The notes: generated from the letters alone by a model not told the origin. A stretch of DNA of 64,000 nucleotides from an uncultured Chloroflexia bacterium (GCA_963750025.1 CAVVPF010000036.1:69523-133522); one strand, 5' to 3'. Numbered from the stretch's first letter, positions 12,517 through 42,763 are shown. A program made the numbers and translations.

Positions 12517-12637
12517 TCCCGCCGTGTCAGCTCTGTTGTCACGAAACGCCCCCCGGAACAGATGATGCTCGAATGGGTGTGGCGGCCTGCCCGCCCGCTG
12601 CCGGCCTGGGATGGCGAGGATACGCCCGTGTCGACGT

Positions 12638-13914: not shown

Positions 13915-14193
13915 GTGCACGACGCGAAGGTCGTCGTCGAGGAGGTCGACATAGCACTGGAGCGACGTTTGACTGTAGCCGACGATGCGCTGGCAACTCG
14001 AGCGATGTTTGTGACGTGGATGGGAAGCCAGTCCTCGCACTGCGAGTGCATCCGGACCAGCTTTGAGAAGGCTGACCCCGCGGCCGATCCGAGTGCTGAA
14101 GCCGTCCGGCAGGCGGGCGTTCGCATCTTTGGCGAGATGCGGGACAAAGAGGCCGCTAAGGAGGAGCAGAAGCGGATCACCGGCGACCTGTAA
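13915..14193 (+). CDS. Small hypothetical protein (92 aa)
   Basis: ORF ends 12 nt before the next plus-strand gene. Its composition is acceptable, but it lies opposite a long shadow ORF. Weak call. Confidence 0.3.
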   Translation: MHDAKVVVEEVDIALERRLTVADDALATRAMFVTWMGSQSSHCECIRTSFEKADPAADPSAEAVRQAGVRIFGEMRDKEAAKEEQKRITGDL

Positions 14194-14205
14194 GGTCTTC
14201 GAATC

Positions 14206-15087
14206 ATGGAACTGCCGCCGTCCGTACCTGCCGCCCTGCAGGACAAGGCATGGCTGAACGAGACCTACCGAGAGGACCGGATCCTTGTTCCTGATCCGTC
14301 CCAGTTCGACGTCGAGTCTTACCGCCAGGGCTCGGTCGATTGGGCGCTCGCGCACATCGACGACTGGAATCGCGAGGACGCCGCCGACCCGCTCCAGTAC
14401 TGCGAGTACAACTGGGTCGAGAACATCGACGGGCAGGTCCGCTGGCGACGCGCCTACGGCTCGCCGACCGACGGGATCCATCGGGCGGCGGCGGCGAAAC
14501 GCGCTGGTGTTCCGACGTGGGTCACCGTGGTCGCCTACTACTTCGAGAAGGAGGCGATCGAGAAGCACGGCCTGCCGGTCGGGCGCGAGGAGCTGGCGCC
14601 GTGGCTTGTGGATGTCGGCGATCCGCCGCGGCCGCGTCACGAGGTGCTGACCCTGCCGCGCTACCAGCCGCGCGACTTCCTCAGAACAGAGTCCCCGATC
14701 GAAGACGGCCTGCTCGGCTTCGACCGGCGAGGCGGCGTCGCCCGCGTCCGGATCTTCGAGCTGCCCGAACGGACCGAGGTCCTGTTCTCGCGTGTCCGTC
14801 GAGCGCTTGGGCCATCCCCTTACGCGACGCTCGGCGGTCAGCTCGAGGCGATGGCAGCGATCTGGAGTTGCCTGCTCGTCGGGCGGCTCAGGCATCCCTG
14901 GGATGCCGAGTGGTGGGCGGACCCCGGCGGAGCTGGCAAGGTCTGGGACGACGCGACGAAACACGTCACGCTCGCTACCGACAAGTTCGGGCGGTTCCGC
15001 TTTCTGGCGCTTGAGCTACCCGACGACGATATGTCCGGCCCTACGCTCGTCGTCCCTCTTTCGCCATCGCGAGGAGGGCGCTGCTGA
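14206..15087 (+). CDS. Hypothetical protein with ParB/sulfiredoxin-like nuclease-domain motif
   Basis: The 293-aa translation is rich in W/Y/D/E, unlike the opposite-strand shadow ORF 13867..14964. 'SPTDGIHRAAAAKRAGVPTWVTVV' resembles the ParB-N/Srx 'DGxHRxxAAxxxG....V.V' core. Confidence 0.55.
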   Translation: MELPPSVPAALQDKAWLNETYREDRILVPDPSQFDVESYRQGSVDWALAHIDDWNREDAADPLQYCEYNWVENIDGQVRWRRAYGSPTDGIHRAAAAKRAGVPTWVTVVAYYFEKEAIEKHGLPVGREELAPWLVDVGDPPRPRHEVLTLPRYQPRDFLRTESPIEDGLLGFDRRGGVARVRIFELPERTEVLFSRVRRALGPSPYATLGGQLEAMAAIWSCLLVGRLRHPWDAEWWADPGGAGKVWDDATKHVTLATDKFGRFRFLALELPDDDMSGPTLVVPLSPSRGGRC

Positions 15088-15748
15088 TCGCCGCTGCGGG
15101 CGCGCTCGTCCTCACACTTCCGGCCGGACGCCTCGCGTGACCCGGACGTAGTTCCACTCTATCGATGGCCGTAACGAGATCCAGGGGAGCGCCGACAAGG
15201 CGAGCGATCACGCGGCATTGCTCCCCGGTCGCCGCCATGAAGCGGACGTACCGAGCCGCATTCGATCCGCGATTGCCGAGGCCGCAGCCATAGGCTGCCG
15301 CGATCGTCCGATCCCAGATCGGGAAGAAGGCCGAGCGGAGGAGATGGAGCGCCTTCGCCGCGCCGACCGGCCCGAGGAGGGTCTCGAAGTCGACGAACAA
15401 GGCCTCGACGCTCGGCTCGTCGGCCTCCGCGAACGAGGCCAGCGACCGCGGTCGCAGCTCCTCAAGCAGACCGGCGTGCCGGTCGATGAGCGCCTCGATT
15501 TCGGCGACGTGTGTGGCATTTGCCGGGTGGTACTGGTAGTAGGCGCGGTTCCAGGTGAACAAGAGGACGGCGAGCGCCTCGCCGAGCGTCAGGCTCGTGT
15601 CGCGGCCCGCAGCGGCGCGGGCGACGAGCTCGGTCGCCGCGCGATAGAACAGGTCGCGCGGCTCGATCTCGCGATAGCGTTGCCGTGCCCAGGCCAGTTC
15701 CTGGAGGGTTGGGGCTTCAGGACCCGTCCTACGAAGGCGAGAACTCAT
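15041..15748 (-). CDS. Hypothetical protein (about 235 aa)
   Basis: ATG at 15748. 'MSSRLRRTGPEAPTLQELAWARQRYREIEPRDLFYRAATELV...LFTWNRAYYQYHPANATHVAEIEALIDRH...' is helical and protein-like. No family recognised. The last ~30 codons may be read-through. Confidence 0.5.
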   Translation of the reverse strand: MSSRLRRTGPEAPTLQELAWARQRYREIEPRDLFYRAATELVARAAAGRDTSLTLGEALAVLLFTWNRAYYQYHPANATHVAEIEALIDRHAGLLEELRPRSLASFAEADEPSVEALFVDFETLLGPVGAAKALHLLRSAFFPIWDRTIAAAYGCGLGNRGSNAARYVRFMAATGEQCRVIARLVGAPLDLVTAIDRVELRPGHARRPAGSVRTSAPAAAISSALLAMAKEGRRA

Positions 15749-16069
15749 TCGAGCGACGAAAGCTCGGCGAGGCCGCAAGACGGCAGCCAGATCCAGCCCT
15801 CGACGAGCGCGATCGTCCGCTGATCGCCCGTCGGCGCGACGGCCTTGCCGCACCGGTAGGCGCGTCCGACAACGCCCGCCAACAGCGCATCGACGGGGTT
15901 GATCCGTGACAACCAGCCGCGCGCGGTCGGAGTCAGCGACATCGAGGTCGAGCGTCTCAACGATCGTCGCGATCGCGCGTTGGCGGTCGGCCAGCCCCGT
16001 CGCATCCTTGTAGCGTCCGGGGTCGATCTGCCAGCAGCGCAGCGCTCCGGCTGGATAGACCTCGATCAC
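15745..16069 (-). pseudogene. Truncated, frameshifted DUF429-like (predicted RNase H-fold) fragment
   Basis: 'IEVYPAGALRCWQIDPGRYKD...' (frame of ORF 15041..16069) and 'NPVDALLAGVVGRAYRCGKAV' (frame of ORF 15745..16005) resemble the middle and C-terminal DUF429 motifs. The N-terminal ~70 aa are absent because cobT ends at 16066. Confidence 0.4.
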
Positions 16070-24984: not shown

Positions 24985-25165
24985 GGACGGATGCCGGACG
25001 GCCCGCGCCTTTCTCTCGAAGGCGACGCGTGGACCAAGCGCAGAGGCCGGTGATCTGGCTCCCGCCCGGCTGGGCGGATACAGTTGCGGGACAGCGCCGG
25101 CTTCGCACCGGCTTCCCCGTTGCTCTCGCCTTGCGGCGAGCGCACCTCTGTCGCTATTCAGTTGT
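24985..25165 (-). promoter_or_regulatory. Cobalamin (B12) riboswitch in the leader of the btuF-cobT operon
   Basis: The minus strand reads '...AACGGGAAGCCGGTGCGAAGCCGGCGCTGTCCCGCAACTGTA...' followed by the B12 box 'GGGAGCCAGATCACCGGCC' (25046-25063). P1-like pairing CAGAGG/CCTCTG is present. A downstream hairpin CCGAGGG-N9-CCCTCGG lies at ~24938-24960, before the RBS. Confidence 0.85.
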
Positions 25166-25233: not shown

Positions 25234-26731
25234 GTGCAGAAGCCCAGCCGTCTCGCGCCCTGTCTGATGGTCCAGGGATCGGCATCGGGCGTGGGTAAGA
25301 GCGTCGTCGCGACGGCGCTCTGCCGAGTCTTGCGCGAAGAAGGATTCCGCGTCGCGCCGTTCAAAGCGCAGAACATGTCGAACAACGCGGCGGTCACCGC
25401 CGACGGCGGCGAGATCGGCCGAGCGCAGGCTGCCCAGGCGGAGGCGGCGGGGATCGAACCCACCGTCGAGATGAATCCGATCCTGCTCAAACCCGAAGCG
25501 GACGACCGCGGCCAGCTCGTCGTCCGGGGCCGTGTGGTGGGTAGCTACGCCGCGCGTGACTACTGGCGGCACCGCGGGGAGCTGTGGCCGGTGGTCACCG
25601 CCTCCCTGGACACCTTGCGGCGCGGCTACGACGTCGTGGTCGTCGAGGGGGCGGGCAGTCCGGCCGAGCTCAACCTGCGCCGGAGCGACCTCGCGAACAT
25701 GCGCGTGGCCCGGCATGCCGGGGCACGAGTGCTTCTCGTCGGCGACATCGAGCGGGGCGGAATCTTCGCGCAACTGCTTGGAACGCTCGACCTGCTCCCC
25801 GCGAGTGAACGCCGACTGGTTCGCGGCCTGATTGTGAACAAGTTCCGAGGCGACCGGACGCTGTTCGACGATGGCGCCCGAATCCTCGCCCGGCGGGCTG
25901 GCGTGCCCGTGTTGGGCGTCCTCGCCTACGAACCGCGTCTACCGGTCCCGCCGGAGGATACGCAGTCTCTCGAGACACGCCCGGCGGTTGACGCCACGGC
26001 AAGCCTCCACGCCGCGCTCATCGCCTACCCGCGGCTCAGCAACTTCGACGACCTCGATCCGTTGCAGGCTGCTGGCGTCGACGTCCGCGTGGTCCGCTCG
26101 CCAGGGGAGCTCGGGCTCCCGGACCTCATCGTCCTGCCGGGTAGCAAGGCGACGATCGCCGATTTGACATGGCTCCGGGGCAGCGGTTTGGCGACCGCCA
26201 TCGTCCGGGCCGGGGGCCAGGGCGTCCCGATCATGGGCATCTGTGGAGGGTTCCAGATGCTCGGGGACTGGATCGAGGATCCAGACGGGGTCGAAGGGCC
26301 GTCTGCCTCGGTGCCCGGGCTCGGCCTGCTCCCGGTCCGGACGCGCCTCACCGAAGTGAAGACGACCAGCCTGGTGGAGGGCACCACCAGCAGTGGCACG
26401 TCACTCGTTCCGAGCGGGACTCCCGTCCACGGCTACGAGATCCACGTCGGCGTCTCGGAGTTGGGCTCGGCCGTGCCGTTTGCCAGCATCAGACCGATCA
26501 GCGGGGGCGGCGAGCCCCGATGGGGCCGTTGCTGAGAGCGGACTCGTCTTCGGCACGTATGTCCACGGAGCGTTTCGGAACCCGGAGTTTCTGCGGAGAG
26601 CCCTACGCTCGCTTGCCTTCCGCCGCGGGATCGGCGTGCCGACACGCTCGGCCGACGACGGCGACCACCTGTCCCGCTGGTTCCGCAGCGGGGCCGACGT
26701 CGAACGGATGGTGAGCTGGCTCCGTCCGTGA
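25234..26731 (+). CDS. cobQ: Cobyric acid synthase, with an apparent frameshift at about 26503-26518
   Basis: 'LMVQGSASGVGKS', 'APFKAQNMSNNA', 'VVVVEGAGSPAE' and 'GICGGFQMLG' (glutaminase Cys). The C-terminal 'GLVFGTYVHGAFRNPEFLRR' is in the frame of ORF 26393..26731. Confidence 0.9.
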
Positions 26732-28437: not shown

Positions 28438-29463
28438 TCAAGCGGCGCGAGCCCACGCTGATTGGCCCGCTTGGAGTAGGCGAAAGACCGGCCGAGCCAC
28501 CCGGTGCTTGAGGCAGCGCAGCGCCTCGGCCCAGCTCTTGCCGCTGGCACGCTTGCGGGCCATGTACGCCTTGGCCGGCTCGTGATGCCAAGCCTGGCTC
28601 AGGGCGATCGTGTACAGCGCCCGGTTCAGCCGCCGGTTGCCACCCCGGTTGAGGCGCATCCGCTGGACCTCGCCCGAGCTGGCCGGGATGGGCGCCACCC
28701 CCGCCAGCATCGCGAAGGCGGCGGGCGAGCGGAAGCGGGCGACGTCACCGGTCTCGGCCACCAGGCGGGCGGCGGTCAGGGCCCCGACCCCGGGCAACGC
28801 AAGGAGGGGATGACCGGCGACGAGGGCAGAGATCGACCGCTCGAGCTCGGCCGCCCGCCGACCCAGATCACGGACCTCAGTCAGGAGCGCCCGGGCGAGC
28901 TCGGCTCGAACGCCAGTCGAACCGGCGAGGGCACGCTCGATCGCCTCGAGCTGGCGGCCACTGACCAGCTGAGCGGCCGTCCGGCGGTAGCCGGGCAGCA
29001 GGACCACGAGGTGGGCGTGGAGGCGGTTGCGGGCCTGGGTCTGGGCACCGACGAGATCGTCGCGCGCATCGGCGAGCAGGCCGAGCTCGGTCGAGCGGTC
29101 CTCGAGCCGGACCGGCGGCAGGTCGGGCTCGCGGAGGGTCACCCGGGCGATCGCGAGGGCATCGCCCGGGTCGCTCTTGCCGGGCCGTCGGCTGCGACCT
29201 CGTTCGCGCCGGCTCAGGTGGGGCGGGACCTCGCGGACGACGAACCCGGCCGCCACGAGATGGTGGGCCACGGGTGCACCGTACGAGGCCGAGCCCTCGA
29301 TCCCGATCCTTCCCTCCGGAGCGACGCCTCCGGCCCAGGCCGCGAGCTCGATGAAGCCCGCCGGATCGCAGCTGAACGTCCGCTCGTCGATGACGCTCCC
29401 GACCTCGTCGACGGCACACGCCGCGAGGGTCCGCTTGTGGGTATCGATCCCGATGGCTGGCAT
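28438..29463 (-). mobile_element. IS110-family transposase gene (element ends not defined)
   Basis: 'MPAIGIDTHKRTLAACAVD' (DEDD N-terminal domain), 'LLALPGVGALTAARLVAETGDVARFRS' and 'SGEVQRMRLNRGGNRRLNRALY' are the IS110 family signature. IS110 elements lack clear terminal repeats, so the borders were not called. Confidence 0.9.
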
Positions 29464-30055
29464 GGCTGACCTCCGGCCGGTGGCCGCGTACGATGGCTGT
29501 GGGCCGGCCGGGCAGCAGTGCGTTGAGTCAAAGCCACGCTCCTATGAGGCCACGGCCGGTCCGCTCGCTCCGGGGACGAGGGCACTTGTCAAGGAACGAG
29601 CCATCCCCCGTGGGCACTACGTATCAGGGCCAACCCGTCCCCGGTCGCGAGCACCTTCCCACGTCGTGGGAGGGCCGGCGTCAGTTACGCACTGCGTATC
29701 AGGCACCCGGCACAGCGGCATCCCTATGCTTGGTCGTGAGTCAGCTGGCGGTATCAAAGCGCCTCTGTGGGTGGCGAAACCGCGGAGGAATCTCAACTTC
29801 GATACTGCCTTTCGTCGGTATCGATGCTACCCGTGCGGTGACAGCGGTGGCGAAGCCGATCCGGTTTCTGGCGACGGAGACGTATGCTTGGCCCCATGCC
29901 CTCGATGCTGGCCCTCATCGGCCGACCGCCCCTCGATCTTTCACGGCTGGGCACGCTGCGCAGCAACGTGGCCGCACTGACTCGTTTGACGGGGATTGCT
30001 GCAACCGCGGCGCGGATCCGGCTGCTAGCCTTCGGCACGGCTGTGTCAGAGGGGA

Positions 30056-30804
30056 TGGCCGAGACCTACCGCGAGATGCTCGCGTTGCGCCTGGCCCTGC
30101 TCGGGCGCGGCTGGTACCTCAGCCCGGACGTGAGCTTCGGCGCCGTAGTCCAGCTCGTGACGACGCAGCGGAGCCTACATCCAGATGGGCTCGACCGGGC
30201 GATGGCCCAGATCACGAGGACCCGCGTGCCGGCGATAGTGGAGACCGCGACTCGGGGATGGCCGCATCGGGCCGCACTGATCACCGAGGCGTTGGACGCG
30301 CATGCAGGTGGCCGGTACGGCTCGAGCGTTCTTCTGCTCTTGTCGCAGGCAGACGGGATGTCGCGCGAGATGTTCGGCGAGGGACTCTTTGCGACGGAGT
30401 ACGTTAGCGGCGAGCGCCGGCCGCGCGTGGCCAAGGCCATGGATCGAAAGCTGGACGAGATCCGAGCCCGGCTCGGAGAGGCGATGCTCCAGGAGTACTT
30501 CGGTTACTTCCTCCAGCACCTATCGGCGCTCCAGCTCGGACAAGTGGAATTGCCGGCGCCTAGGTCGGGCATGCTTGGCCCCCTGAATAGGCACGCGATC
30601 ATGCACGGCGACGACCTCGAATTCGCGACGGAGCTGAACTCACTGCGGGCCCTTTCGCTGCTGGACTACCTCGTGAGCTTTAGGCGGCTCCACGGTCACC
30701 CGATGCTGCAGCCTGGCCTCGCCTTGAGCCTGACAGTGTTCGGCGCGGTGTCGACGGCACGTCAGATGGGCTCATTGGCCAAGGATGGACGAGCCTCGGA
30801 GTGA
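30056..30804 (+). CDS. Hypothetical helical protein with HEPN-like RHxxxHG motif
   Basis: Part of ORF 29884..30804. The most plausible start is ATG 30056 ('MAETYREML'). 'GMLGPLNRHAIMHGDDLEF' carries R-H-x3-H. No family recognised. Confidence 0.55.
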
Positions 30805-31215
30805 TCGGCGGCGGGCACCGAACTCGGGAGCAGGCCGCTTGCATCGGCGGGCGATAACCTGCGATGGGCCGAAGGAGGCCGGGTACGCGATGTACTACGC
30901 ACTGCGCGATCGGGACTCCGGGGCCGGCAAGCGGCGAAGTCGGCGGTAGGTGGCTGCGCCCAGGGCCTCAGGCGAGGTCTGCGCTTGCCGCGCAGAGCAA
31001 TGGAACGATCCGATCTCACAGAGATTCACTACATCTGATACCGGCGTGCGCTCTCGCCAGCTCGTGGTCCGCCTCGACGGAGTCGCGCCCGAGTTCAGCC
31101 TCCTAGATGCCGAGGCGGCGGGATTGCCCGTCCTCCTGCGCTGGCCGCTCACCCGCCACGCCGACGACGCGCGGGCCCCATCGCCGCCCGACCCGGATGA
31201 CGGAGCCCCGGCCTG

Positions 31216-32340
31216 ATGGGTCAGCACATCCTCAGTGAGTGGCTGATCAAGCCCTTCACGCATCCGACGAAGCGCGGCGATCGGCTTACGACCTACAACA
31301 AGGCGACCAACGAGTACGGGGAGGTGGCGCCGCGACATTTCCTGGCGCCCGAGAACGACCACTCGGACGAGATCGAGCAGGAGCTGAACAGGATTGAGTC
31401 GCCGGCTGCTGCTGCTGCCAGGCACCTCCATGACCTGACGACCAGCCTTCCACCGGGCATCTGTCGGGTGGGCGATCGTGACGAGCCGGACCTGGACAAC
31501 CCCAATGCGCCGGTGCGTGCCGGTGGCCGAGCTGCCGGTTTCGAGCTCCTCGTTGTCGATCGACAGATCGCGCAGCTGCCCCCCGCCGAGAAGAAGGCGC
31601 TGGCCAAGTTCGTCGCGCTGATGTTCACGCGGGCGCCGAAGGTCGAACGCGCCATCACCATCCAGGCCGCCGCCTTCTCGCGCGGAGTGGATAAGGCGCT
31701 CATGGAGCGTGGCCTGATGAGTGACGAAAGGGCGGCGATTGAGCTGGCCGTTGCCGTCGAGTCCGCACGCTGGTTGGGGCTCCGCGACGCCGCGACCTAC
31801 GCGGAGCGCTTGGCCGCCAGGCAATGGTGGGTGCTGAAGGCCGACGAAGACCAGAAGGAGGAGTTCATCCTTGGCGACACCCCCGTCGTCCCCACCCTGG
31901 CTCTCGGACACGACGACGAGTGGCGGCCACTATTCCACGCCGCGACTTCGGCCGTCGTCATGCCGTTGAGTCCGTCGCTGACGCTGATGATCGCGGACTT
32001 GATCCCCGTCGGCGGCAACTCGCTGGACTTCGTGGCCTCGATCAATCGGCTGTCGTGGAAGCACGCAGATGAGCAGGTTATCGGCGTCAGCCGGGCGAAG
32101 CTGGAAGAGGTCCGAGGCGACCTGGCCGCGCATGGGTGGCGCGAGAGCGCCCCGGTGCCCATCGCCGACGAGATGGCGACGGAGATGCGCGGGCGCCGCT
32201 ACTCGGCGCTGTGGTCGCTGGAGTGGCAGTGGAGACAAGGGATGCTGCCCGGCCAACCGATCTACCTCCCGCTTCGGTTCCCCGACTGGCCGATGTGGCT
32301 TGAGGATCGAGCAGCGGAGAGACAGAAGCGGCGGCGGTAG
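31216..32340 (+). CDS. DUF4238-like protein
   Basis: N-terminus 'MGQHILSEWLIKPF' resembles the DUF4238 'HyvPqfyLknF' start. The 374-aa translation is protein-like, unlike the opposite shadow ORF 30895..31911. Confidence 0.55.
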   Translation: MGQHILSEWLIKPFTHPTKRGDRLTTYNKATNEYGEVAPRHFLAPENDHSDEIEQELNRIESPAAAAARHLHDLTTSLPPGICRVGDRDEPDLDNPNAPVRAGGRAAGFELLVVDRQIAQLPPAEKKALAKFVALMFTRAPKVERAITIQAAAFSRGVDKALMERGLMSDERAAIELAVAVESARWLGLRDAATYAERLAARQWWVLKADEDQKEEFILGDTPVVPTLALGHDDEWRPLFHAATSAVVMPLSPSLTLMIADLIPVGGNSLDFVASINRLSWKHADEQVIGVSRAKLEEVRGDLAAHGWRESAPVPIADEMATEMRGRRYSALWSLEWQWRQGMLPGQPIYLPLRFPDWPMWLEDRAAERQKRRR

Positions 32341-32341
32341 C

Positions 32342-33425
32342 TCAGGCAGCCGGTCGCCAGTCGGTCCAGGGCACCTCGGTGAGCAGCGCGAGCGGTGCCT
32401 TCAGCTCGGCGAGGAGCGCTCTTGCGGTGATCCCTTCGAGCTGGCGAATGCCGCGAACCACGCGGTCGACGCCGTTCGGCATCTCGTGGATGACCAGCGA
32501 GCCGTCGTGGACCGTCGTGTTGCGCCATTTGATGGTGTCGGTTAGGAGGGCCTCGAGTTCCTCCTCAACTGGCTGAGCAGGATAGGGCTCGAAGAGCGTT
32601 CGGAGGTACTCCAGGACAATGCCCTTCATTGGCCGGCGTTGGAGTTCAGCCGCCTTGTCGCGGAGTGCCTGGCGGTCTTTGTCGTCGAGTCCTTCACGGT
32701 CCGCGAGCTCGTCGAGGCAGTCCCGTGCCGAACTGACCAACTTGGCGTTGAGTAGCTTGTTCCTCTCGTTCGCCTTCGCCCAGCGAGCCGCCAGGATCTT
32801 CGAGGGCGATCCAGTGGTGGGCGAGCTGGATGTCGAGGTAGTGGAGGCCGTGACCACCGCGTGCGAAGTTGTGCCACTCCATCGCCTGGGGGATGCCGCT
32901 CTCCTCGAAGCCTTCCTCATCGAGCCGCGGCCATGCGGCGTCGAAGAAGGTCCTGAGATCGCCCCGCATGCGGAACATGTGGGAGCCCCTGCGCCGCCCG
33001 TACTTCGGCAGACCGATGTTCGTGCGGAGCCGTTCCCAGCGCCCGCCCGGCTCACCGCCGCGCGTGATGAGCGCATCCGTGTAGGTCGGTGAGCGGGTGA
33101 TGAATGACAGCAGGGACGACATCCACGCCAGGTCCGGGACGAGCTGCTCCTCGAACTTGTTGGTCTCGAGGTAGGCGACAGCCGTGGCGATCGGCGTGTC
33201 GCGGTCGCCCTGTCGGACCCTCTCCGCGTCGAGTGCGAACGGATCGCCGTCAGGGAACTCCACCCGGAAGGGGAGCACCTCGGCTTCGTCCGGCCGAAGG
33301 AAGAGGTTGATGAGCCGGACCTCGGCCGGCGACTCGTCGGCGCGACCAACCCCGTTCTTGTCTGTCGTTGTGTCGGTTTCGGACTCCGACCGACGCTCGG
33401 CGGCGCGATTGCTCACGCCGCGCAT
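32342..33425 (-). CDS. Hypothetical protein with C-terminal HEPN-like domain (RNxxxH), with an apparent frameshift at about 32795-32806
   Basis: The N-terminal part is in ORF 32694..33425 and the C-terminal part in ORF 32342..33349. They join at 'AHHWIALE|KILAARWAKANERNK'. The C-terminal helical region contains 'LLTDTIKWRNTTVHDGSL'. Confidence 0.55.
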
Positions 33426-33684
33426 GCTACGGCGACGGCGGTGGCACTACCTCGCCTTCCGCGTCGGCATGGTGGCGGACGTGGAGACGACCGCGGAGCG
33501 GCGCGCGCTCGTACTTCCCGAGGCGAGGAGCACGTGGTGACGCTCACGGTCCTCGCATTCCAGGCCTCCGGGGCGTATAGAAGTGGCTGATGGCATCACG
33601 GTGGCAGCGCAGCGCTCGGCGGCAGACTTCGACGAAGTCGTGACGGGCTGATAACAGCGGTGACCTTCGACTGACTTCGAGTTC

Positions 33685-35250
33685 TTAACCCGGCGCCGTT
33701 TGTTGTCCCCCGGCCGAGACCGGATATGCCCACGCATCACGCGCCGTCCAGGCTTCGACCGTGGGTTGGGCGTAGTCCACCACACCGGACAGCGGGCTCA
33801 AAAGAACGGCCAATTGGCCATCCTCGGCACGGAAAGGGAACCGGGGTCCAGGCCGTGCGTCGAGGTCCTCTCGCCACTTGTTCTTTAGGCGACCGTCCTC
33901 CTCGGCACCTAGCAGCGGCACTATTTCATTCACAACGGCTGCTGTCTGCGCAACGAGGCGTACGGCGAAGGGCAGGGGGTCCAGCTCCGCCCACTCAGGC
34001 TCATCGATCTCGTAGCGGGTCACGCCCCGCCTTCCATGAGTGCTGACAGGCACCCGCGCCGGCGAATGCGTCTTGCCGAGCCCCCACGCAGCAGGATCCT
34101 GCGCCATCTCAGACAGCCTCTCCCGAATCCAAAGGAGCAGATCCCCACGCACGGCGAGCCTAGCGACCGTGGGCTCCCGCTCGTTCTGGACGGTTAGCTT
34201 TCGAACGCGTTCGCGATGGATCGCGTGATGTCGCAGCCGCAGCGACAACTCGATGTGGGGAAGATGCTCCTCGACATACGCCCGCACCGCAACTCCGGCT
34301 GGTCCGACTCTGCCCACTTCACGCTGCCACCAGCGGCTCCTTAGCGCCCAATCGAGATCGCGGCCAGCGGGGATCGACAGATAGGTGCCCACCAAGCGGG
34401 CAAGCGTGTCCAAGATCGCATTCGAGACGAGCACGCAGTTGTCGAATTCGTCGGCGAGTTCGTCCAGTTGGTCATTGTTGGTGGGTAACTGCCAGGCAGC
34501 AACCATGCGATCTAATCGCAGGGTCAAGGCGTCTATCCGGCTAAGGATCGACTGCCCAAGGTCCTCCAGCAGTTCGCCTTCGGGCACGAGGTAGCGGAGT
34601 CCGCTCATCGCAGCCAGTCCGGAGTGAAGGCCGGGCGTGAGCGCGCTGCCGAGTGCCCGATAGTAGAAGCCCCGGTTAAGCCCTATGAGTCCAATGAAGG
34701 CGCAATTTGCCACACGCGACCAGGGACCCAAGATCGTCAGGGCTTCAGAAGGTGTGACCACGTTGGCAGCCCCGAGTTTCCCGCTAGCTGCTAACAAGGT
34801 CGTGTCGAGTGTGACAAAGAGATCGGCAGCGATGCTTTCGCCGACCAGCGCTTCAAGCACACGCCATCGGGCCTCGGGATCTCCGAAAACGCGCTCTGCA
34901 GCCGCGGTCGCGGCTCGAAGCCCGTCTAGGTGGGACATTGCCTCCGTATTCGCGTCCGGGTAGTACCGCACGTAGGCGATGTCGGCCGCGGCATCCTCAA
35001 TGACCTGCACGGCCGGGCAGCTGAGCGCGACGTCGTCACCTGGCGTGCGGAAGGCCTCAAAATCGCGCGAGCGGAGATGGGTGAGCTGCCAAAGGGCTAG
35101 CCTTTCGGAACGAGGCACATTAGCTAGGCCGGCAGTGTGTAGGCACACGCGGAACGGACGAAGGCGGGCGGGGGTCTCAGCCCACTCAAATGGGTTCAGG
35201 GGCGGATCCGAGGGGTATCTGGTCCTCTTGGAGTAGTCCAGCCTTCTCAT
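33685..35250 (-). CDS. Hypothetical protein (521 aa) with HEPN-like RHxxxH motif
   Basis: Single clean ORF with protein-like composition. Contains 'HIELSLRLRHHAIHRERV'. No family recognised. Confidence 0.6.
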   Translation of the reverse strand: MRRLDYSKRTRYPSDPPLNPFEWAETPARLRPFRVCLHTAGLANVPRSERLALWQLTHLRSRDFEAFRTPGDDVALSCPAVQVIEDAAADIAYVRYYPDANTEAMSHLDGLRAATAAAERVFGDPEARWRVLEALVGESIAADLFVTLDTTLLAASGKLGAANVVTPSEALTILGPWSRVANCAFIGLIGLNRGFYYRALGSALTPGLHSGLAAMSGLRYLVPEGELLEDLGQSILSRIDALTLRLDRMVAAWQLPTNNDQLDELADEFDNCVLVSNAILDTLARLVGTYLSIPAGRDLDWALRSRWWQREVGRVGPAGVAVRAYVEEHLPHIELSLRLRHHAIHRERVRKLTVQNEREPTVARLAVRGDLLLWIRERLSEMAQDPAAWGLGKTHSPARVPVSTHGRRGVTRYEIDEPEWAELDPLPFAVRLVAQTAAVVNEIVPLLGAEEDGRLKNKWREDLDARPGPRFPFRAEDGQLAVLLSPLSGVVDYAQPTVEAWTARDAWAYPVSAGGQQTAPG

Positions 35251-35589
35251 GCACGACTAACCTTACGGTGCGCGCCATGTTGCGCGGGTGGTGGCTACGG
35301 TAGATGGGCACGACCTTCCGGCTGTGGGACCAGCGAATCGCGATGTCCTAACTGTGAGTAATGTGCTCGCTCTGGGAAGCGGATGACCCCGGGTACCTCG
35401 TCGGACCGGGACGCTCAGCGCCCTCTGTCGAACACGCCTTCGAAGCGGGGCAGGAACGTCGGTGCGGGCCCCGCGTCTCTCAAGGCAAAGGGCTCTAGAT
35501 TGACGCTACCCGGATTGGCGTCTGAGTCGAGGGGCCCTGGCGATTCCACGCAGAGTCAGTTGGCCTGAGCCCCGTTTCTGCGATGAATG

Positions 35590-36165
35590 TCAGCACTCCG
35601 AACCTGGCGTGGATGGGTCGTCAAGGACGACCACCATCTGGATGCGACCTTCCTCGATCACGCTGCCGCCACCGATCTTCCCGCAGAGCGGAGCCTCCTC
35701 GCTAAAGCTGATCTCATCGTCATCGCTGGATTGGGTGCCGCCTCGAGCTTCGATCTGCCACCGAATGACGTAGCCCTTCTCGGCGGCCATCGCGGCAGCC
35801 TCGACCGGTGAACGGTCGAAGATGTTGGTGCCCCAGAACGGCTGGCCGAAATTCGTCAGGCCCGGCCGCTCGATGACACCCTCTCTGAAGAGGATCCCGT
35901 CCACAAAAACGATCCCGTCCCCGAGAACCCGCTGAGCGACTGCACCGCCCGCAAATGCCACGGCCGCGACGAGCGACACGCTGGCTGCGAGCAGCAGGGT
36001 CCGACGACGCGGCGAACGAGCCGGTCGCGCGCGATAGCGCTCCCGAGCCGTGGCAACCCGTCCGTCGATCAGGGCAGTCACGCGCGCCGGCGGGCGGTCC
36101 ACCCGGTAAATCTCGCTGAGCTCGCTCTCGAGCGAGGACGTGGTTCGAGGAGTGGGTGCAGTCAT
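35590..36165 (-). CDS. Putative anti-sigma factor / membrane-anchored protein
   Basis: ATG 36165 overlaps the sigma-factor stop (ATGA). One transmembrane segment, 'LLLAASVSLVAAVAFAGGAVA', follows an Arg-rich N-terminal region. Confidence 0.6.
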   Translation of the reverse strand: MTAPTPRTTSSLESELSEIYRVDRPPARVTALIDGRVATARERYRARPARSPRRRTLLLAASVSLVAAVAFAGGAVAQRVLGDGIVFVDGILFREGVIERPGLTNFGQPFWGTNIFDRSPVEAAAMAAEKGYVIRWQIEARGGTQSSDDDEISFSEEAPLCGKIGGGSVIEEGRIQMVVVLDDPSTPGSEC

Positions 36166-36737
36166 GAGTAGGTCTCCCGCAGCCGGCCTAACGCCCGGCT
36201 GATCATCTTCTGAGTCGCCGCTTCGCTCTTGCCGATCACCGCACCGATCTCGCGCGTACTAAGGCCAGCGCCATAGCGGAGAGCGAGGCACTCTCGCTGC
36301 AGCGGAGGCAGCTGGCGCACGTGCTTGGCGAGTTCGCGGCTGGCCTCGGCCCGTAGGAGCTCCGGCTCGGGCCGTCCCTGCTCGCTGAATGGATGCTGCT
36401 CGGGCCTGATGAGCTCGAGCGGACGGAGTGGTCGGCGACGTCGTGTCGCATCGACGGCTTGACTGCGAGCGATGCGGAACAGCCAAGCGGCAAGGCCGTC
36501 GCGTCCACCCCGATAGGACGACAGCTTGACGAGCGCCCGCTCGAAGGTCTTGGCGGTGAGATCCGCCGCCTCGTCATCGTCTACCGCGAAGCGGCGCACG
36601 TAGTGGAAGAGCGGATCTCGGAAGCTTAGGTACGCCTCCTCGAAGGACGCGTCGATTGCGCCGGCCAACGCGCCTGAGCTTTGGAGCTTCTTGCCTTCGG
36701 CTGCCGCGCCGGTGTCCATCGTCCCTCCCGAGTCCAA
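36162..36737 (-). CDS. ECF (sigma-70 family, group 4) RNA polymerase sigma factor
   Basis: Region 2 'DEAADLTAKTFERALVKLSSYRG...LAAWLFRIARSQAVD'. Region 4 'LPPLQRECLALRYGAGLSTREIGAVIGKSEAATQKMISRA'. Confidence 0.85.
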   Translation of the reverse strand: MDSGGTMDTGAAAEGKKLQSSGALAGAIDASFEEAYLSFRDPLFHYVRRFAVDDDEAADLTAKTFERALVKLSSYRGGRDGLAAWLFRIARSQAVDATRRRRPLRPLELIRPEQHPFSEQGRPEPELLRAEASRELAKHVRQLPPLQRECLALRYGAGLSTREIGAVIGKSEAATQKMISRALGRLRETYS

Positions 36738-37463: not shown

Positions 37464-38927
37464 ATGCGCGACCGCGGGACAGCTACGCGCGGCCGACCGA
37501 TAATTGTCGCCGTGACGTTGCAGGTTGACACGAGCCGAGCGATCCGAACGCTGGCAGAGCAGCATCTCCTGATCCAGTCGATCGTTGATGCGCCGCCCAG
37601 CGAGCAGGAAACCGAGTGGTTGGAGTGGAAGACCGACGTTGACCTAGGAAGCAAGGAGTGGCAGGCGACGACTTCTCGCCACGTCCTCGGCTTCGCGAAT
37701 CGCCATCCTGATTTGGCTGTTCAGTGGTGTGAGGGCTCCGCCTACATCGTCCTCGGCGCAGCTCCCGGAAGTCTTCAGGGCGCGAAGGTCTACGACATTG
37801 CGAAACTCAACGCCTGGCTGTCGGCGTATCTGGGCTCCGCACCGGACGCACCGCAGTGGTCCGCTACGTACCTAGAGCTGGGAACTGTCCAAGTTCTGCT
37901 AATCACGATAGAGAAGCCGCGGTGGGGCGACCCAATTTGGACCCTCCGGAAGGAGTACACACCACTAAAGCCTCTCGCGCCGTTGCGGGCTGGGACAATC
38001 TACGTGCGAAGAAGGGGAAGCACAGACCAGGCCGACCCCGGAGAGGTCCGGATGCTCACCCTCCGGGCGGGATCAGGGCCACGACGCTTGAGCGTATCGC
38101 TTCGCATTCCGGAAGACGAGAACGCCATTCCGATCGATGCCGGGGAGACGTTGATCAAGAGCTGGGCAGCGGCCGAACGTGCCGCTCTCGGGGCACCTCC
38201 ACGGCCGGCGTCGCGTCAGAGATCTGATCCGGCGTCAACCATCAAGGTGAGTCTTGCCGAGAGCCTGTCGGCTGCCCAAAACGCGATACTGGCTTCAGCG
38301 ACCTTCGGCGAAACGCGAACAGTCGACGCATTCAGGGCCGAGGTCGATGCTTATCTGGCCAAGGCTAAGAATGCCATTCCGGCGGCATTGAAGCGCGGCG
38401 CGGTCCGCCACAAGCTCGGCAGGCTTCATTTCTGGCTCGACAACCAAACCGAGCACAACTTCAGCCAAGTTGTCGTCGAGCTCTCCTTCGACCAGCCGGC
38501 AGTGATGGCATGCTTCGATCAGAGGGGTGTCGGAGGTCCGGAGTTCCCGAACCGTCCCGCTCCCTGGGGCTCCTACAACCTGAGTCGCCTCTTGGGCGGC
38601 TCGCTCTTCGACGTGCGCATGCCGATGGTTGCTCCGATGAACGTACCGCATATTCCTCGAGGCACAATCGATAACAGCGGTTCGACTCACATCCGCTTCG
38701 CCCCCGTCGATGTGAGGCCGGGATACTCGCACCGGCTCGAAACGATCTACCTCATTGTCGGTCCGGAACACGCGAATGAACTCCTGGGCGGTGTATGGCT
38801 AGCGACCGCGGCAGACACCAGTGGAGTCGTGCGCGGCAATATCGACGTCCCGGTCTCGCCCAAAATTCCGGGCTTCAAGGAGCTCCTGTCGGAACCCGTT
38901 CGCGATGTCGACGATAAGGACGACTGA
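37464..38927 (+). CDS. Hypothetical protein with N-terminal AlbA_2/Schlafen-like (putative DNA-binding) domain
   Basis: 'SEQETEWLEWKTDVDL...SRHVLGFANRHPD...GSAYIVLGA' resembles the AlbA_2 (PF04326) 'E.e.lEfK' core. The C-terminal ~300 aa are unassigned. An alternative GTG start lies at 37512. Confidence 0.55.
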   Translation: MRDRGTATRGRPIIVAVTLQVDTSRAIRTLAEQHLLIQSIVDAPPSEQETEWLEWKTDVDLGSKEWQATTSRHVLGFANRHPDLAVQWCEGSAYIVLGAAPGSLQGAKVYDIAKLNAWLSAYLGSAPDAPQWSATYLELGTVQVLLITIEKPRWGDPIWTLRKEYTPLKPLAPLRAGTIYVRRRGSTDQADPGEVRMLTLRAGSGPRRLSVSLRIPEDENAIPIDAGETLIKSWAAAERAALGAPPRPASRQRSDPASTIKVSLAESLSAAQNAILASATFGETRTVDAFRAEVDAYLAKAKNAIPAALKRGAVRHKLGRLHFWLDNQTEHNFSQVVVELSFDQPAVMACFDQRGVGGPEFPNRPAPWGSYNLSRLLGGSLFDVRMPMVAPMNVPHIPRGTIDNSGSTHIRFAPVDVRPGYSHRLETIYLIVGPEHANELLGGVWLATAADTSGVVRGNIDVPVSPKIPGFKELLSEPVRDVDDKDD

Positions 38928-39806: not shown

Positions 39807-41510
39807 GTGTCGCAGCCTGCTAGCCTCTCGACCATGCAGCCGAACTCGCTCTACTTCGGCGACAACCTTAAGGTCCTGAGCGAGAAGCTGCCCGACGGGA
39901 CGTACGTCTTCCCGAGCGAAAGCGTCGACCTCGTCTACCTCGACCCGCCGTTCAACTCGAACCGCGACTACAGCGTCATCTTCAAGGAGGCGGGCGGCGG
40001 AGGCGCCGACGCGCAGATCAAGGCGTTCACCGACTCCTGGCACTGGGGACCCGAGGCGCGCGATGCCTTGGAAGAGCTGACGGTCACGGGCGTGAACGAA
40101 GGGCGAATCCCGGATAACGTCGGCCGGCTCGTTGACGCGCTCGTTCGCGGCATCGGCCACAACGACATGAGCGCCTACCTAGTGATGATGGCGCCGCGAT
40201 TGGTGCAGCTACATCGAGTCCTAAAGAAGACGGGCTCCCTTTACCTGCACTGTGACCCGACCGCGTCGCATTACCTGAAGCTCGTCCTCGACGCGCTCTT
40301 TGGGCCGAAGAATTTTGTGAACGAGATCGTCTGGAAGCGCCAGACCTCGCATAACGACGCGGCCCAGGGCGCCAAGCACTTCGGGCGTCTTCAAGACGTG
40401 CTTCTGCTGTACTCGAAGGGTCCTGGCTATTACTGGGAGCAGCCGTACCGACCGTACGACGAGGAATACGTCGAGAAGTTCTACCGAAACGTTGAGCCGG
40501 GCACCGGGCGCCGATTCACCCTGAGCGATACCACCGCACCGGGCGGCGCGTCACCGGAGAAGCGCAATCCCTACTACGAGTTCCTGGGGGTGAAGCGCTA
40601 TTGGCGGTTCAGCGAAGACCGGATGAAGGAGTTGTACGAGGCTGGGCGGATCGTGCAATCAAAGCCCGGTGCCATCCCTCGCCAGAAGCGCTACCTCGAT
40701 GAGATGCCGGGGATGCCGATCGGTACGTGGTGGGATGACATTCGACCGGTGCAGGCCCAGGGATCGGAGAGGCTCGGGTACCCCACCCAGAAGCCGTTGG
40801 CCTTGCTCGAACGAATCATCTCGACCTCCTCGCGACCGGGCGATCTGATCCTCGACCCGTTCTGCGGCTGCGGCACCGCCACGATCGCGGCGGAGAAGCT
40901 GAGGCGGAAGTGGGTCGGGATCGACATTACGCATCTCGCCATCGCGGTCATGCGGAGCCGTCTGTTCGACAGTTTCGGCTTGGTAGCCGTCCCGGTTCAC
41001 GGCGTGCCTGCCGATCTGGAGAGTGCTCGGCTACTGGCCGCTGAAAGCAAGGACGGTCGCTACGAGTTTCAGTGGTGGGCACTGTCCTTGGTCGAGGCGA
41101 GGCCGCTCGGCGGCGAGCGCAAGAAGGGCGCTGATCGTGGCATCGACGGCGTTATGACGTTCTCCGAGCGCGACTCGATCCAACGCATCCTGGTCAGCGT
41201 CAAGTCGGGCCACCCGAGCCTGCTCCACGTCAAGGAGCTCATCGCGACGCTAGAGACGGAGAAGGGTGCGATCGGCGTGCTGATCGAGCTGGACGAGCCG
41301 ACCAGCGAAATGAAGCGCGCTGCTGTCGAAGCCGGGCAATACGAGTCACTGCTGTGGGGCGGCAAGTACGAGCGGGTCCAAATCCTAACGGTGAGCCAGT
41401 TGCTGGCCGGGGAGAAGCCGACTGTGCCGAAGTTCCTGCCGGCGTACCAGAAGGCGGCCAGAATCGATGCGACGGCCGGCGAGCAGCAGGAGCTGTTTGG
41501 AGGCGGTTAG
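39807..41510 (+). CDS. Beta-class N6-adenine (DPPF) DNA methyltransferase fused to a C-terminal PD-(D/E)xK (Mrr-cat-like) domain
   Basis: Motif IV '[10 protein letters not shown]' is near the N-terminus. Motif I '[27 protein letters not shown]' comes later, which is the beta-class order. '[14 protein letters not shown]' is present. The C-terminus has 'ADRGIDGV...ILVSVKSG'. An alternative ATG start lies at 39834. Confidence 0.85.
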
Positions 41511-41538: not shown

Positions 41539-42763
41539 TGGGTTCAGGGGGTCGACGCAACGATCGCTGCCAGCATAGCGGCGGGCGTCTGGTACTCAAG
41601 CGTCTTGCGAGGCCTGGCGTTGAGCCGTGCCGCCACGACGTCGAGATCCGCCTGGCTGTAGGGCGACAGGTCGGTCCATTTGGGGAAGTACTGGCGGAGC
41701 AGCCCGTTAGTGTTCTCATTGGTGCCGCGCTGCCAGGGGCTGCGCGGGTCACAGAAGTAGACCGCGACGTCGGTGGCGACGCTGAAACGCCGATGGTCGG
41801 CGAGCTCCACGCCGCGGTCCCAGGTCAGGCTGGCCCACAGCTGCCGGGGCAGCGTCTGAATCTGGGCGGCCAGGGCGTCGACCACCCTCGCGGAGTTCTT
41901 GCCCGGCACCTTGACGAGGAGCAGGTAGCGGGTGCTGCGCTCGACGAGCGTGGCGATGTGGCTGTTGGCGGAGCCCGCCAGCAGGTCACCCTCCCAATGG
42001 CCGGGCACCGCCCGATCGTCGGCCTCGGCCGGGCGCTCCCGGATGGAGACCGCGTCGACGATCCCGCCGCGGCCCTGGCCCTTGGTGGTGGCGAGGCGCG
42101 AGCGGCGGACGGAGCGGCGGGTGCGGAGATGGGCCATGAGCTCCTTGCGCAGGACGCCGCGGGCCTGCACGAAGAGGCTCCGGTAGATCGTCTCGGTCGA
42201 CACCTGCAGAGCCTGCTCCCCGGCATGGGTCCGGGCAAGCCAGCCCGAGATCTGTTGGGGCGACCAGTCGAGCGCGAGCTTGGCCGCCACGAGCTCCCGC
42301 AGCTGCGGTGATGTCGCGAGCTTGCATGGCCTCGGCCGCCGGGCACGCTGCCAGGCCCGCTCGTCGGCCCCGATCGCACGGTAGCGGAGGCGGCCACCGT
42401 GCCGGGCGATCTCGCGGCTGATCGTCGAGGCCGCCCGGCCCGAGCGGCGAGCGATCGTGCGCAGCGAGACGCCCTGCGCCAGGCCGCGCGAGATCTCCTC
42501 CCGCTCGGCCAGCGACAGCACCCGTGACGAGCGACGCTGAGTCGCCGGCACGTAGCCGCCGTTCGACGCCACCATCCGGTGGATGGAGCCACGCTCTTTA
42601 CCGAGTGCCCGTCCAATCGCGCTGAGCGACTGGCCTGCCTTCCAGCGTGACCACATCTCCCGCTTCTGCTCAGCCGTCAACCCTGGCCTGTCCAAATGCG
42701 CCATGAGCCCACCTCCCGATCGACACTGCACCAACCGTGGTGTTGCGTCGATGGGTGGAACCC
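41539..42763 (-). mobile_element. IS30-family insertion sequence
   Basis: Imperfect terminal inverted repeats: GGTTCAGGGGGTCGACGCAAC (41539-41559) versus GTTGCGTCGATGGGTGGAACC (42743-42763), matching at 15/21 positions. They enclose the transposase gene. The element starts ~30 nt after the methyltransferase stop. Confidence 0.8.
41544..42704 (-). CDS. IS30-family transposase
   Basis: N-terminal HTH 'LTAEQKREMWSRWKAGQSLSAIGRALGKERGSI'. DDE core 'PGHWEGDLL', 'LTWDRGVELA' and 'PWQRGTNENTNGLLRQYFPK'. Confidence 0.9.
   Translation of the reverse strand: MAHLDRPGLTAEQKREMWSRWKAGQSLSAIGRALGKERGSIHRMVASNGGYVPATQRRSSRVLSLAEREEISRGLAQGVSLRTIARRSGRAASTISREIARHGGRLRYRAIGADERAWQRARRPRPCKLATSPQLRELVAAKLALDWSPQQISGWLARTHAGEQALQVSTETIYRSLFVQARGVLRKELMAHLRTRRSVRRSRLATTKGQGRGGIVDAVSIRERPAEADDRAVPGHWEGDLLAGSANSHIATLVERSTRYLLLVKVPGKNSARVVDALAAQIQTLPRQLWASLTWDRGVELADHRRFSVATDVAVYFCDPRSPWQRGTNENTNGLLRQYFPKWTDLSPYSQADLDVVAARLNARPRKTLEYQTPAAMLAAIVASTP

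Follow-up and report, generated by a model that had tools for sequence, protein, structure and literature searches.

A putative mosaic of single-gene cassettes: three R[N/H]xxxH proteins and a DUF4238 gene on an island flanked by insertion sequences in a Chloroflexia bacterium

The four-gene block and its motifs

The stretch of DNA analyzed here, referred to below as the window, comprises 64,000 nucleotides from an uncultured Chloroflexia bacterium (GCA_963750025.1 CAVVPF010000036.1:69523-133522), and all positions are counted from its first letter. It contains four neighboring genes, three of which encode the proteins designated P1, P2 and P3, while the remaining one, located between P1 and P2, encodes a DUF4238 protein. 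An earlier note on this DNA had observed that each of the three proteins carries an R[N/H]xxxH string resembling the catalytic motif of HEPN ribonucleases (RNases), and had proposed that the cluster could be an abortive-infection or toxin-type RNase module, or several stacked ones. The reading favored here, at a probability of roughly 0.55, is that the block represents a mosaic of separately mobile single-gene cassettes, probably with defense or toxin functions, residing on an island flanked by insertion sequences (ISs), and not one machine. The four genes are the following:

29884-30804, plus strand: P1, an open reading frame (ORF) of 306 amino acids (aa)
31216-32340, plus strand: DUF4238 gene, 374 aa, apparently intact (PF14022, E 8.3e-19, 68.5 bits)
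32342-33425, minus strand: P2, as read from its ORFs, split here over two frames
33685-35250, minus strand: P3, an intact ORF of 521 aa

The R[N/H]xxxH strings are present in all three proteins, as the earlier note had stated. P1 contains GPLNRHAIMHGDD, with the motif R236-H-A-I-M-H241 at 30589-30606 (plus strand); P2 contains DTIKWRNTTVHDGS, with R-N-T-T-V-H at 32507-32524 (minus strand); and P3 contains LSLRLRHHAIHRER, with R340-H-H-A-I-H345 at 34216-34233 (minus strand). The additional argument that three such motifs in adjacent genes are hard to dismiss holds in part. Presence alone is not significant, because R[NHD]xxxH occurs in 5-11% of shuffles of each protein and because, among the 85 open frames of 250 aa or more in this arginine-rich window, 18 contain it. 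It is conservation among homologs, as far as alignments can tell, that raises the motif above chance: the Arg and the His are kept in the homologs found of all three families, with R236 invariant (99/99) and H241 nearly so (98/99) in an alignment of 99 diverse P1-family members (16% mean column identity), the P2 motif in all five homologs that carry its domain, and R340 and H345 of P3 in eight sequences.

Comparison of the P1, P2 and P3 families with one another by hhalign revealed no relationship (probabilities of at most 0.3%), and at the level of sequence a common origin of the three cannot be shown. Scans of the three proteins, their homologs and trimmed motif domains against Pfam, NCBIfam, PHROGs and PADLOC matched no curated family, except for phrog_28904 (P1) and a sub-threshold match to HEPN_Swt1 (a P2 homolog). 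Likewise, profile searches of the PDB with five family alignments (A1, A2, A3, A4 and A7) gave only coiled-coil or chance matches.

Families and predicted folds

HEPN domains are built on a four-helix core of two hairpins, frequently with an insert between helices 2 and 3, and carry an Rx4-6H motif either where helix 3 ends or in the loop leading to helix 4; in catalytic members the Arg is followed by a polar residue (N, D or H), and helix 2 bears an acidic residue (Anantharaman et al., 2013, PMC3710099). P1 agrees with this description in its helix order with an insert, in a conserved acidic residue on helix 2, in the spacing of its Rx4-6H motif, in the polar residue that follows the Arg and in the placement of the motif ahead of the last long helix. 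Its AlphaFold2 model, built with a 53-sequence alignment, is mostly helical and reaches a predicted local distance difference test (pLDDT) score of 81.2 and a predicted template modeling (pTM) score of 0.79. Helices 127-141 and 145-164 form a hairpin, with D157 and E162 on the second helix, followed by a beta-hairpin insert at 171-180 and a helix at 182-197, an arrangement read from the DSSP string only. The motif falls on a short helix (236-240), from which a loop (241-249) leads to the last long helix (250-271). A Foldseek search of the model against BFVD, a collection of predicted viral structures, returned as its top match a Siphoviridae protein annotated as DUF4209 (E 3.6e-9, probability 1.0), with template modeling (TM) scores of 0.62/0.70 over 275 columns at 18% identity. 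DUF4209 corresponds to the C6orf70 family of HEPN proteins, for which Rx4-6H is listed as conserved and whose bacterial members occur in operons related to restriction-modification (R-M) systems (PMC3710099). Given this one strong structure match and the agreement of P1 with the published features, P1 is probably a HEPN-superfamily protein, belonging to an uncurated family whose predicted fold resembles that of DUF4209/C6orf70.

The three proteins had been described as orphans, which does not hold for P1, since its family comprises 3,638 representative clusters (defined at 50% identity) in an exhaustive profile search at E<=1e-3. In the 99-member alignment, H237 and G242 are invariant like R236 (99/99 each) and N235 is kept in 95/99, so that N-R-H-x-[VI]-[LM]-H-G stands out as an invariant or almost invariant family signature. 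Outside the motif, R129 (99/99), H140 (96/99), G158 (95/99), N252 (96/99) and Y247 (Y or F in 99/99) are conserved as well, and the two acidic residues of the hairpin are D or E in 98/99 (D157) and E or D in 92/99 (E162). P1 itself has no match in Pfam, NCBIfam or PADLOC and matches phrog_28904, of unknown function, at E 9e-12. Helix-turn-helix (HTH) domains are found in a few members of the family (HTH_3 and HTH_31 each match 3/53) and would fit either self-regulation or a regulatory role. As for the gene itself, its start most likely lies at 29884 and not at ~30055, where the earlier note had placed it, because the 57 upstream codons are conserved at the protein level in the 71%-identical homolog P0002; these codons are modeled as helices by AlphaFold2. 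Additionally, P1 and its close clade share a hydrophobic C-terminal tail, QPGLAL(G/S)LT(V/L)FGA(V/I)STAR, at residues ~277-296 (window 30712-30770), which is absent from the broad family and modeled with low confidence. This tail might be a membrane anchor.

The P2 region, which had been taken for a single gene, is not one ORF in the window: the N-terminal ~200 codons (33425 to ~32800) and the motif-bearing C-terminal ~150 codons lie in different frames, and the motif stands downstream of the frameshift, out of frame with the N-terminal part. The frame is broken by one extra T (of the TT at 32799-32800), where the window reads ATCTTCGAG versus ATCTCGAG in L001 and L002, two related loci described below. 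Since the extra T at 32799 is absent from L001, L002 and contigs of three independent soil metagenome runs (X1, X2 and X3), it is a private mutation or an assembly error. The intact protein (P0005, 360 aa, 99% identity) reads HHWIALEILAARWA across the break, and the public record of the 152-kb source contig annotates P2 as pieces of 243 and 95 aa. P2 combines an N-terminal mixed alpha/beta domain with a C-terminal helical domain that bears RNxxxHxGS. Of the six homologs found, five carry the motif domain (P0005, P0006, P0007, P0008 and P0010), and in all five RNxxxHxGS is identical, which at identities ranging only from 55 to 78% is weak evidence; a tblastn search of plasmids and phages found no further homologs. 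No significant profile match of P2 to any HEPN family was obtained, nor any match among PDB sequences, and a match to HEPN_Swt1 (PF18731) over the motif region remained below threshold and was limited to P0010 (E 0.12-0.17, 13.1 bits versus a cut-off of 27.5). The AlphaFold2 model of P2 is poor (pLDDT 58.1), with a helical C-terminal domain in which the motif (301-306) lies late in helix 287-314 and is followed by a low-confidence break or variable-length loop and by helix 318-340, a predicted placement that is compatible with HEPN but proves nothing. The helical domain can exist alone, because P0008, a 214-aa gene product found in L022-L024, corresponds to the motif-bearing C-terminal half of P2 without the rest (75% identity). 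In the three samples concerned, P0008 adjoins DinB, NUDIX and HIT genes.

P3, whose coordinates are those given in the earlier note, belongs to a rare family with close homologs (P0011-P0014) and distant relatives on Rhodococcus plasmids. The four close homologs keep RH(H/Q)A(I/V)H, and four Rhodococcus plasmid proteins align with P3 end to end at 18-21% identity. R340 and H345 are among the 12 invariant columns of the resulting eight-sequence alignment (A7), which extends down to 18% identity, as are three acidic residues, D247, D281 and D424; the close clade additionally shares a nearly invariant WQLPTNNDxLDELADxFD block. P3 has no relevant match in Pfam, NCBIfam, PHROGs, PADLOC or PDB sequences. 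No more P3 homologs were found by tblastn against phages, and further scans of genome, metagenome and viral contigs for P2 and P3 homologs added only one P0014-type locus. An N-terminal PIN-like domain suspected by eye from an 'LFVTxD...VVTP' stretch lacked profile support and is not claimed. On a plasmid of Rhodococcus pyridinivorans SB3094, a distant P3 relative (L026:1997-2962) lies head to head with a gene for a TIGR02391 protein, which we take to be of the Ymh family, placed within HEPN by the 2013 survey.

The gene between P1 and P2 was correctly recognized as DUF4238-like, its match to PF14022 exceeding the cut-off of 27 bits and spanning positions 2-278 of the 281 in the profile. PADLOC yields no match to the window protein at E<=1, and tblastn at 1e-5 retrieved none from the plasmid collection. 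A DUF4238 protein from a hotspot of P2 prophages (the phage, not the protein described here) conferred strong T7 resistance as a single gene in E. coli (Rousset et al., 2022, PMC9122126). The family has been counted as a defense system in later surveys. In DefenseFinder this single-gene system is presumably the one named 'Rst_DUF4238'. An 88-aa ORF at 30950-31216, abutting the DUF4238 start, was considered as a partner gene and rejected, having a weak codon-position GC pattern and no homolog beyond the near-identical L001 and L002.

Distribution of the genes and their island

Homologs of the four genes were located in the following related loci, listed by their content and neighbors:

L001: all four genes at 93-99% identity, same element; P3 comes after a protein of 1,093 aa that weakly matches N6_Mtase and Eco57I
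L002: window 29693-33702 (P1, DUF4238 and P2) at 98%, without P3; element with an integrase, an HTH protein, an M78 peptidase and a ParB-methylase
L003: P2 (58%) and DUF4238 (68%), tail to tail ~38 nt apart, by an integrase
L014: P2 (55%) directly after hsdM, then a 99-aa DUF4238 fragment (42%) on the same strand
L012: P2 (54%) without DUF4238, on an element with a type IV secretion system
L022-L024: C-terminal half of P2 only (75%), without DUF4238
L015: P3 alone is shared with the window (33733-35361, 89%) and is preceded by a C5 methylase, an MvaI/BcnI endonuclease and Vsr
L011: P3 relative (49%) with a methylase and a Rep protein as neighbors
L007-L010 and L021: P3 relatives (34%) that adjoin a relaxase
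L026: Rhodococcus P3 relative next to the TIGR02391 protein
L013: P1 relative preceded by an unknown protein of 1,645 aa
L025: P1 relative preceded by a MauJ-like gene
L004-L006: P0004, a lone P1 relative surrounded by genes of the Wood-Ljungdahl pathway and for cell-wall precursors
L016-L019: solitary P1 relatives, carried by Burkholderia, Xanthomonas and Cupriavidus conjugative plasmids and by the Clostridium phage phiCp-B

The four genes occur together only in near-identical copies of the block (L001, and L002 without P3), and, apart from the adjacency of P2 and DUF4238 discussed below, no co-occurrence was found in diverged genomes; the more distant homologs of P1, P2 and P3 each stand without the other two. 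Judged by co-occurrence, the genes are not regarded as a multi-gene system. The breakpoints of recombination can be placed within tens of bases, at ~29693 and at 33702-33733, and the resulting picture is that P1, DUF4238, P2 and P3 are single-gene cassettes recombining independently. Of the two options offered by the earlier note, it is the several stacked modules that agree with this distribution and the single module that does not. Further copies of the cassette genes show damage or changes: in L001, P3 carries a 1-nt deletion close to its start (window-equivalent 35179) and a 15-nt in-frame insertion (window-equivalent 34948), and DUF4238 is split over two frames in L002 (8709-8831) and probably in L003 (2758-3972).

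The block lies at the left end of a stretch of lower GC content (0.62-0.67) that extends from ~30 to 42 kb, the otherwise high-GC window reaching ~0.70-0.74 in its flanks. The remaining features of this stretch and its borders are:

28438-29463, minus strand: IS110-family transposase bordering the block on the left (Pfam DEDD_Tnp_IS110, E 1.6e-27; Transposase_20, E 1.1e-24)
35590-36737, minus strand: extracytoplasmic function (ECF) sigma factor (by Pfam) and a downstream ORF, a putative anti-sigma factor
37464-38927, plus strand: orphan ORF of 487 aa (Pfam and PADLOC scans)
39807-41510, plus strand: DNA methylase of 567 aa fused to a restriction-endonuclease-like domain (profile matches)
41544-42734, minus strand: IS30-like transposase ORF closing the low-GC island on the right, its family assigned by eye (HWEGDL motif)

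An IS-flanked island had been proposed for this region, and the IS110 element on the left, the IS30-like ORF on the right and the lower GC content bear this out. The similarity of the window to L001 and L002 begins just past the IS110 element, at 29679 and 29693, respectively, and metagenome contigs part from the window at 29693. No repeats bounding the island were found by a repeat scan of 27.5-43.5 kb. The 567-aa fusion protein, whose gene adjoins the IS30-like ORF, matches N6/N4 DNA methylases (E 1.1e-37) and, in its C-terminal part, NA-iREase1 (E 6.5e-7) and Mrr_cat (E 0.003); the 487-aa ORF has no match in Pfam, NCBIfam, PHROGs or PADLOC and no homolog in the fetched loci. The setting of P1-P3 is a mobile, defense-rich island.

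Several observations extend beyond the island. Window segments 14142-15767 and 29679-35359 are ~280 bp apart in L001 and ~13.9 kb apart in the window, where the intervening ~13.9 kb carry cobalamin-type genes, a cobalamin riboswitch and the IS110 element, which suggests an IS-linked rearrangement or an insertion that split an older island. The riboswitch (Rfam RF00174, 60 bits) lies at 25028-25164 on the minus strand, just upstream of a cobyric-acid-synthase-like ORF (25234-26535, plus strand) but on the opposite strand. Farther to the left, at ~9672-13221 (minus strand), two neighboring genes match DUF2398 (E 4.5e-89) and DUF2397 (E 7.6e-106), families of the TIGR02677-02680 cluster, which makes up a condensin-like anti-plasmid system of the Wadjet type. 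If this pair is of the Wadjet type, it would be another defense system in the same neighborhood.

Interpretation and comparison with known systems

By analogy with characterized HEPN enzymes, P1 would be a metal-independent endoribonuclease with an active site formed by Arg236, His237 and His241, to which the acidic helix-2 residues Asp157 and Glu162 would contribute, and could act as a stand-alone toxin or abortive-infection effector. DUF4238 is a member of a family already known to protect against phage as a single gene. P2, a rare two-domain protein that tends to adjoin DUF4238, could be a second HEPN-like nuclease, and in P3, a rare protein of ~500 aa, the conserved Arg/His pair is a possible nuclease center. 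Both are thus candidate nucleases, whose additional domains might sense infection, and the repeated placement of P2 and P3 beside R-M systems and on plasmids, as judged from gene neighborhoods, fits a defense or addiction role. The analysis establishes the presence and conservation of the motifs, the fold link of P1, the DUF4238 assignment, the modular distribution and the frameshift; RNase activity, a defense role and the HEPN folds of P2 and P3 are all inferred, and HEPN membership of the latter two is unproven.

Several results weigh against this interpretation. Regarding P1, the link to HEPN rests on a single Foldseek match and the label which that match carries in its database; the model has no significant match among solved structures in the PDB, where an archaeal HEPN homolog (1wol) appears only at E 6.2, and among the Pfam matches listed for 152 P1-family members, the best 25 families per scan, there is none to DUF4209 (PF13910) or to the HEPN clan. 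The quality of the P2 model is poor, as stated above, and a Foldseek search with it against the PDB returned nothing below E 1. P3 has no profile match to any HEPN family, and its Rhodococcus clade reads LRN-SIH, i.e., Rx3H, in which Arg and His stand one residue closer together than the canonical Rx4-6H spacing allows. PADLOC contains no match to any of the three proteins, and the frameshifts in several copies (P2 of the window, P3 of L001, DUF4238 of L002 and probably of L003) may reflect decay or poor assemblies. The link of all three proteins to HEPN, as suggested in the earlier note, fares differently for its parts: the structure prediction and Foldseek result speak for P1, and the poor model and 13-bit HEPN_Swt1 match lend P2 no firm support.

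A more far-reaching proposal, which can only be advanced tentatively, has two separate parts: that P1 represents a large clade (at least 3,600 clusters) of solitary HEPN-like RNases acting as one-gene abortive-infection or toxin systems, and that P2 is a dedicated partner of DUF4238. If true, members of the P1 clade, for which Pfam, NCBIfam and PADLOC have no entry, would be found on plasmids and in prophages as well as on chromosomes. An active P1 RNase would mean a widespread uncurated branch for the HEPN superfamily, as well as a new one-gene candidate for the anti-phage and toxin catalogs, which now lack a PADLOC, Pfam or NCBIfam model for it.

It is rather doubtful, by comparison with the mosaic, that P2 and DUF4238 form a conserved two-gene module, with DUF4238 as sensor or effector, P2 as its HEPN-like partner nuclease or regulator, and P1 and P3 as unrelated neighbors. 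The two genes are adjacent in three of five lineages, each separately diverged (the window with L001 and L002; L003; L014), and in the window, L001 and L002 they lie tail to tail with one base between their stop codons. However, convergent genes cannot share a transcript, their orientation is not conserved, P2 is found without DUF4238 in L012 and as its C-terminal half alone in L022-L024, the DUF4238 copies beside P2 are often broken (L002, L003 and L014), the sample amounts to five lineages only, and a DUF4238 protein protects E. coli by itself (PMC9122126). The recurrent adjacency provides a lead on the mechanism of DUF4238, and if P2 is a dedicated partner, it would be the first handle on DUF4238 defense.

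Slightly less probable still is that the conserved Arg/His pairs are not RNase centers and that the likeness to HEPN is superficial, above all for P2 and P3, in which case the proteins could be regulators, DNA- or nucleotide-binding proteins or other enzymes traveling as cargo of mobile elements. The lack of any significant HEPN profile or solved-structure match for P1, P2 and P3 and the Rx3H spacing in the Rhodococcus clade are in line with this view, as are the HTH domains of some P1-family members, which fit a regulatory role, the location of the P1 relative P0004 among housekeeping genes, and the possibility that D247, D281 and D424 of P3, together with its WQLPTNNDxLDELADxFD block, form a metal-dependent site. 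Against it stand the Foldseek result for the P1 model (a DUF4209 protein, E 3.6e-9), the published HEPN features that P1 displays (helix order, insert, helix-2 acidic residue and polar residue after the Arg), and neighbors that are repeatedly R-M, integrase, relaxase or toxin-antitoxin genes.

Finally, one abortive-infection or toxin system integrating all four genes, with three HEPN RNases among its subunits, which was the first option of the earlier note, is very improbable: the four genes are contiguous in the window and in L001 (93-99% identity) and all three proteins keep R[N/H]xxxH, but L001 is essentially the same DNA and so not independent evidence, the L002 block lacks P3, the more distant homologs lack one another, the genes lie on both strands with gaps of 259-411 bp, and no sequence relationship is detectable among the three families. 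A mosaic of single-gene cassettes remains the preferred reading, and the locus would then be a clear case of defense-type genes being shuffled one at a time. Current ideas are not overturned by it; known categories are extended, and the observations most worth following are how large the unannotated P1 family is and that P2 and DUF4238 recur side by side.

Among known systems, HEPN-MNT (type VII) toxin-antitoxin pairs resemble the locus in having a putative HEPN toxin on a mobile element. P1, P2 and P3 are not part of such a pair, because neither a nucleotidyltransferase gene nor a small cognate gene was found beside any of them in the window and related loci. HEPN genes embedded in R-M loci (PrrC, RloC, Abi_C/AbiD-F and Swt1-like; PMC3710099) offer a closer parallel: P2 follows hsdM in L014, P3 follows a complete type II R-M system and Vsr in L015, and all three proteins carry R[NH]xxxH with a polar residue after the Arg. 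P1-P3 show no significant profile match to any member of that group (the best being HEPN_Swt1 at 13 bits for one P2 homolog), and unlike PrrC and RloC they contain no ATPase or ABC domain, the folds of P2 and P3 being only putative.

The single-gene DUF4238 system (PMC9122126) is matched by the window gene in its nearly full-length PF14022 domain and in its location on a mobile island beside defense-type genes. It differs in that the window protein comes from a high-GC soil or permafrost bacterium and that P2 is a frequent neighbor here, whereas the published system has none.

The closest likeness of P1 is to C6orf70 (ERMARD)/DUF4209 (PF13910). The P1 model superposes on the phage DUF4209 protein, and both have a conserved Rx4H; DUF4209 members occur in R-M related operons, and relatives of P1 on plasmids, in phages and on islands. 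However, sequence comparison yields no match between P1 and DUF4209, identity to the phage protein being 18%, and P1 has additional invariant or near-invariant residues (R129, H140 and N252) and the family-specific N-R-H-x3-H-G. The P1 family is therefore separate from DUF4209 and uncurated. The novelty of this locus consists in uncurated families within a known superfamily, assembled in a known type of island.

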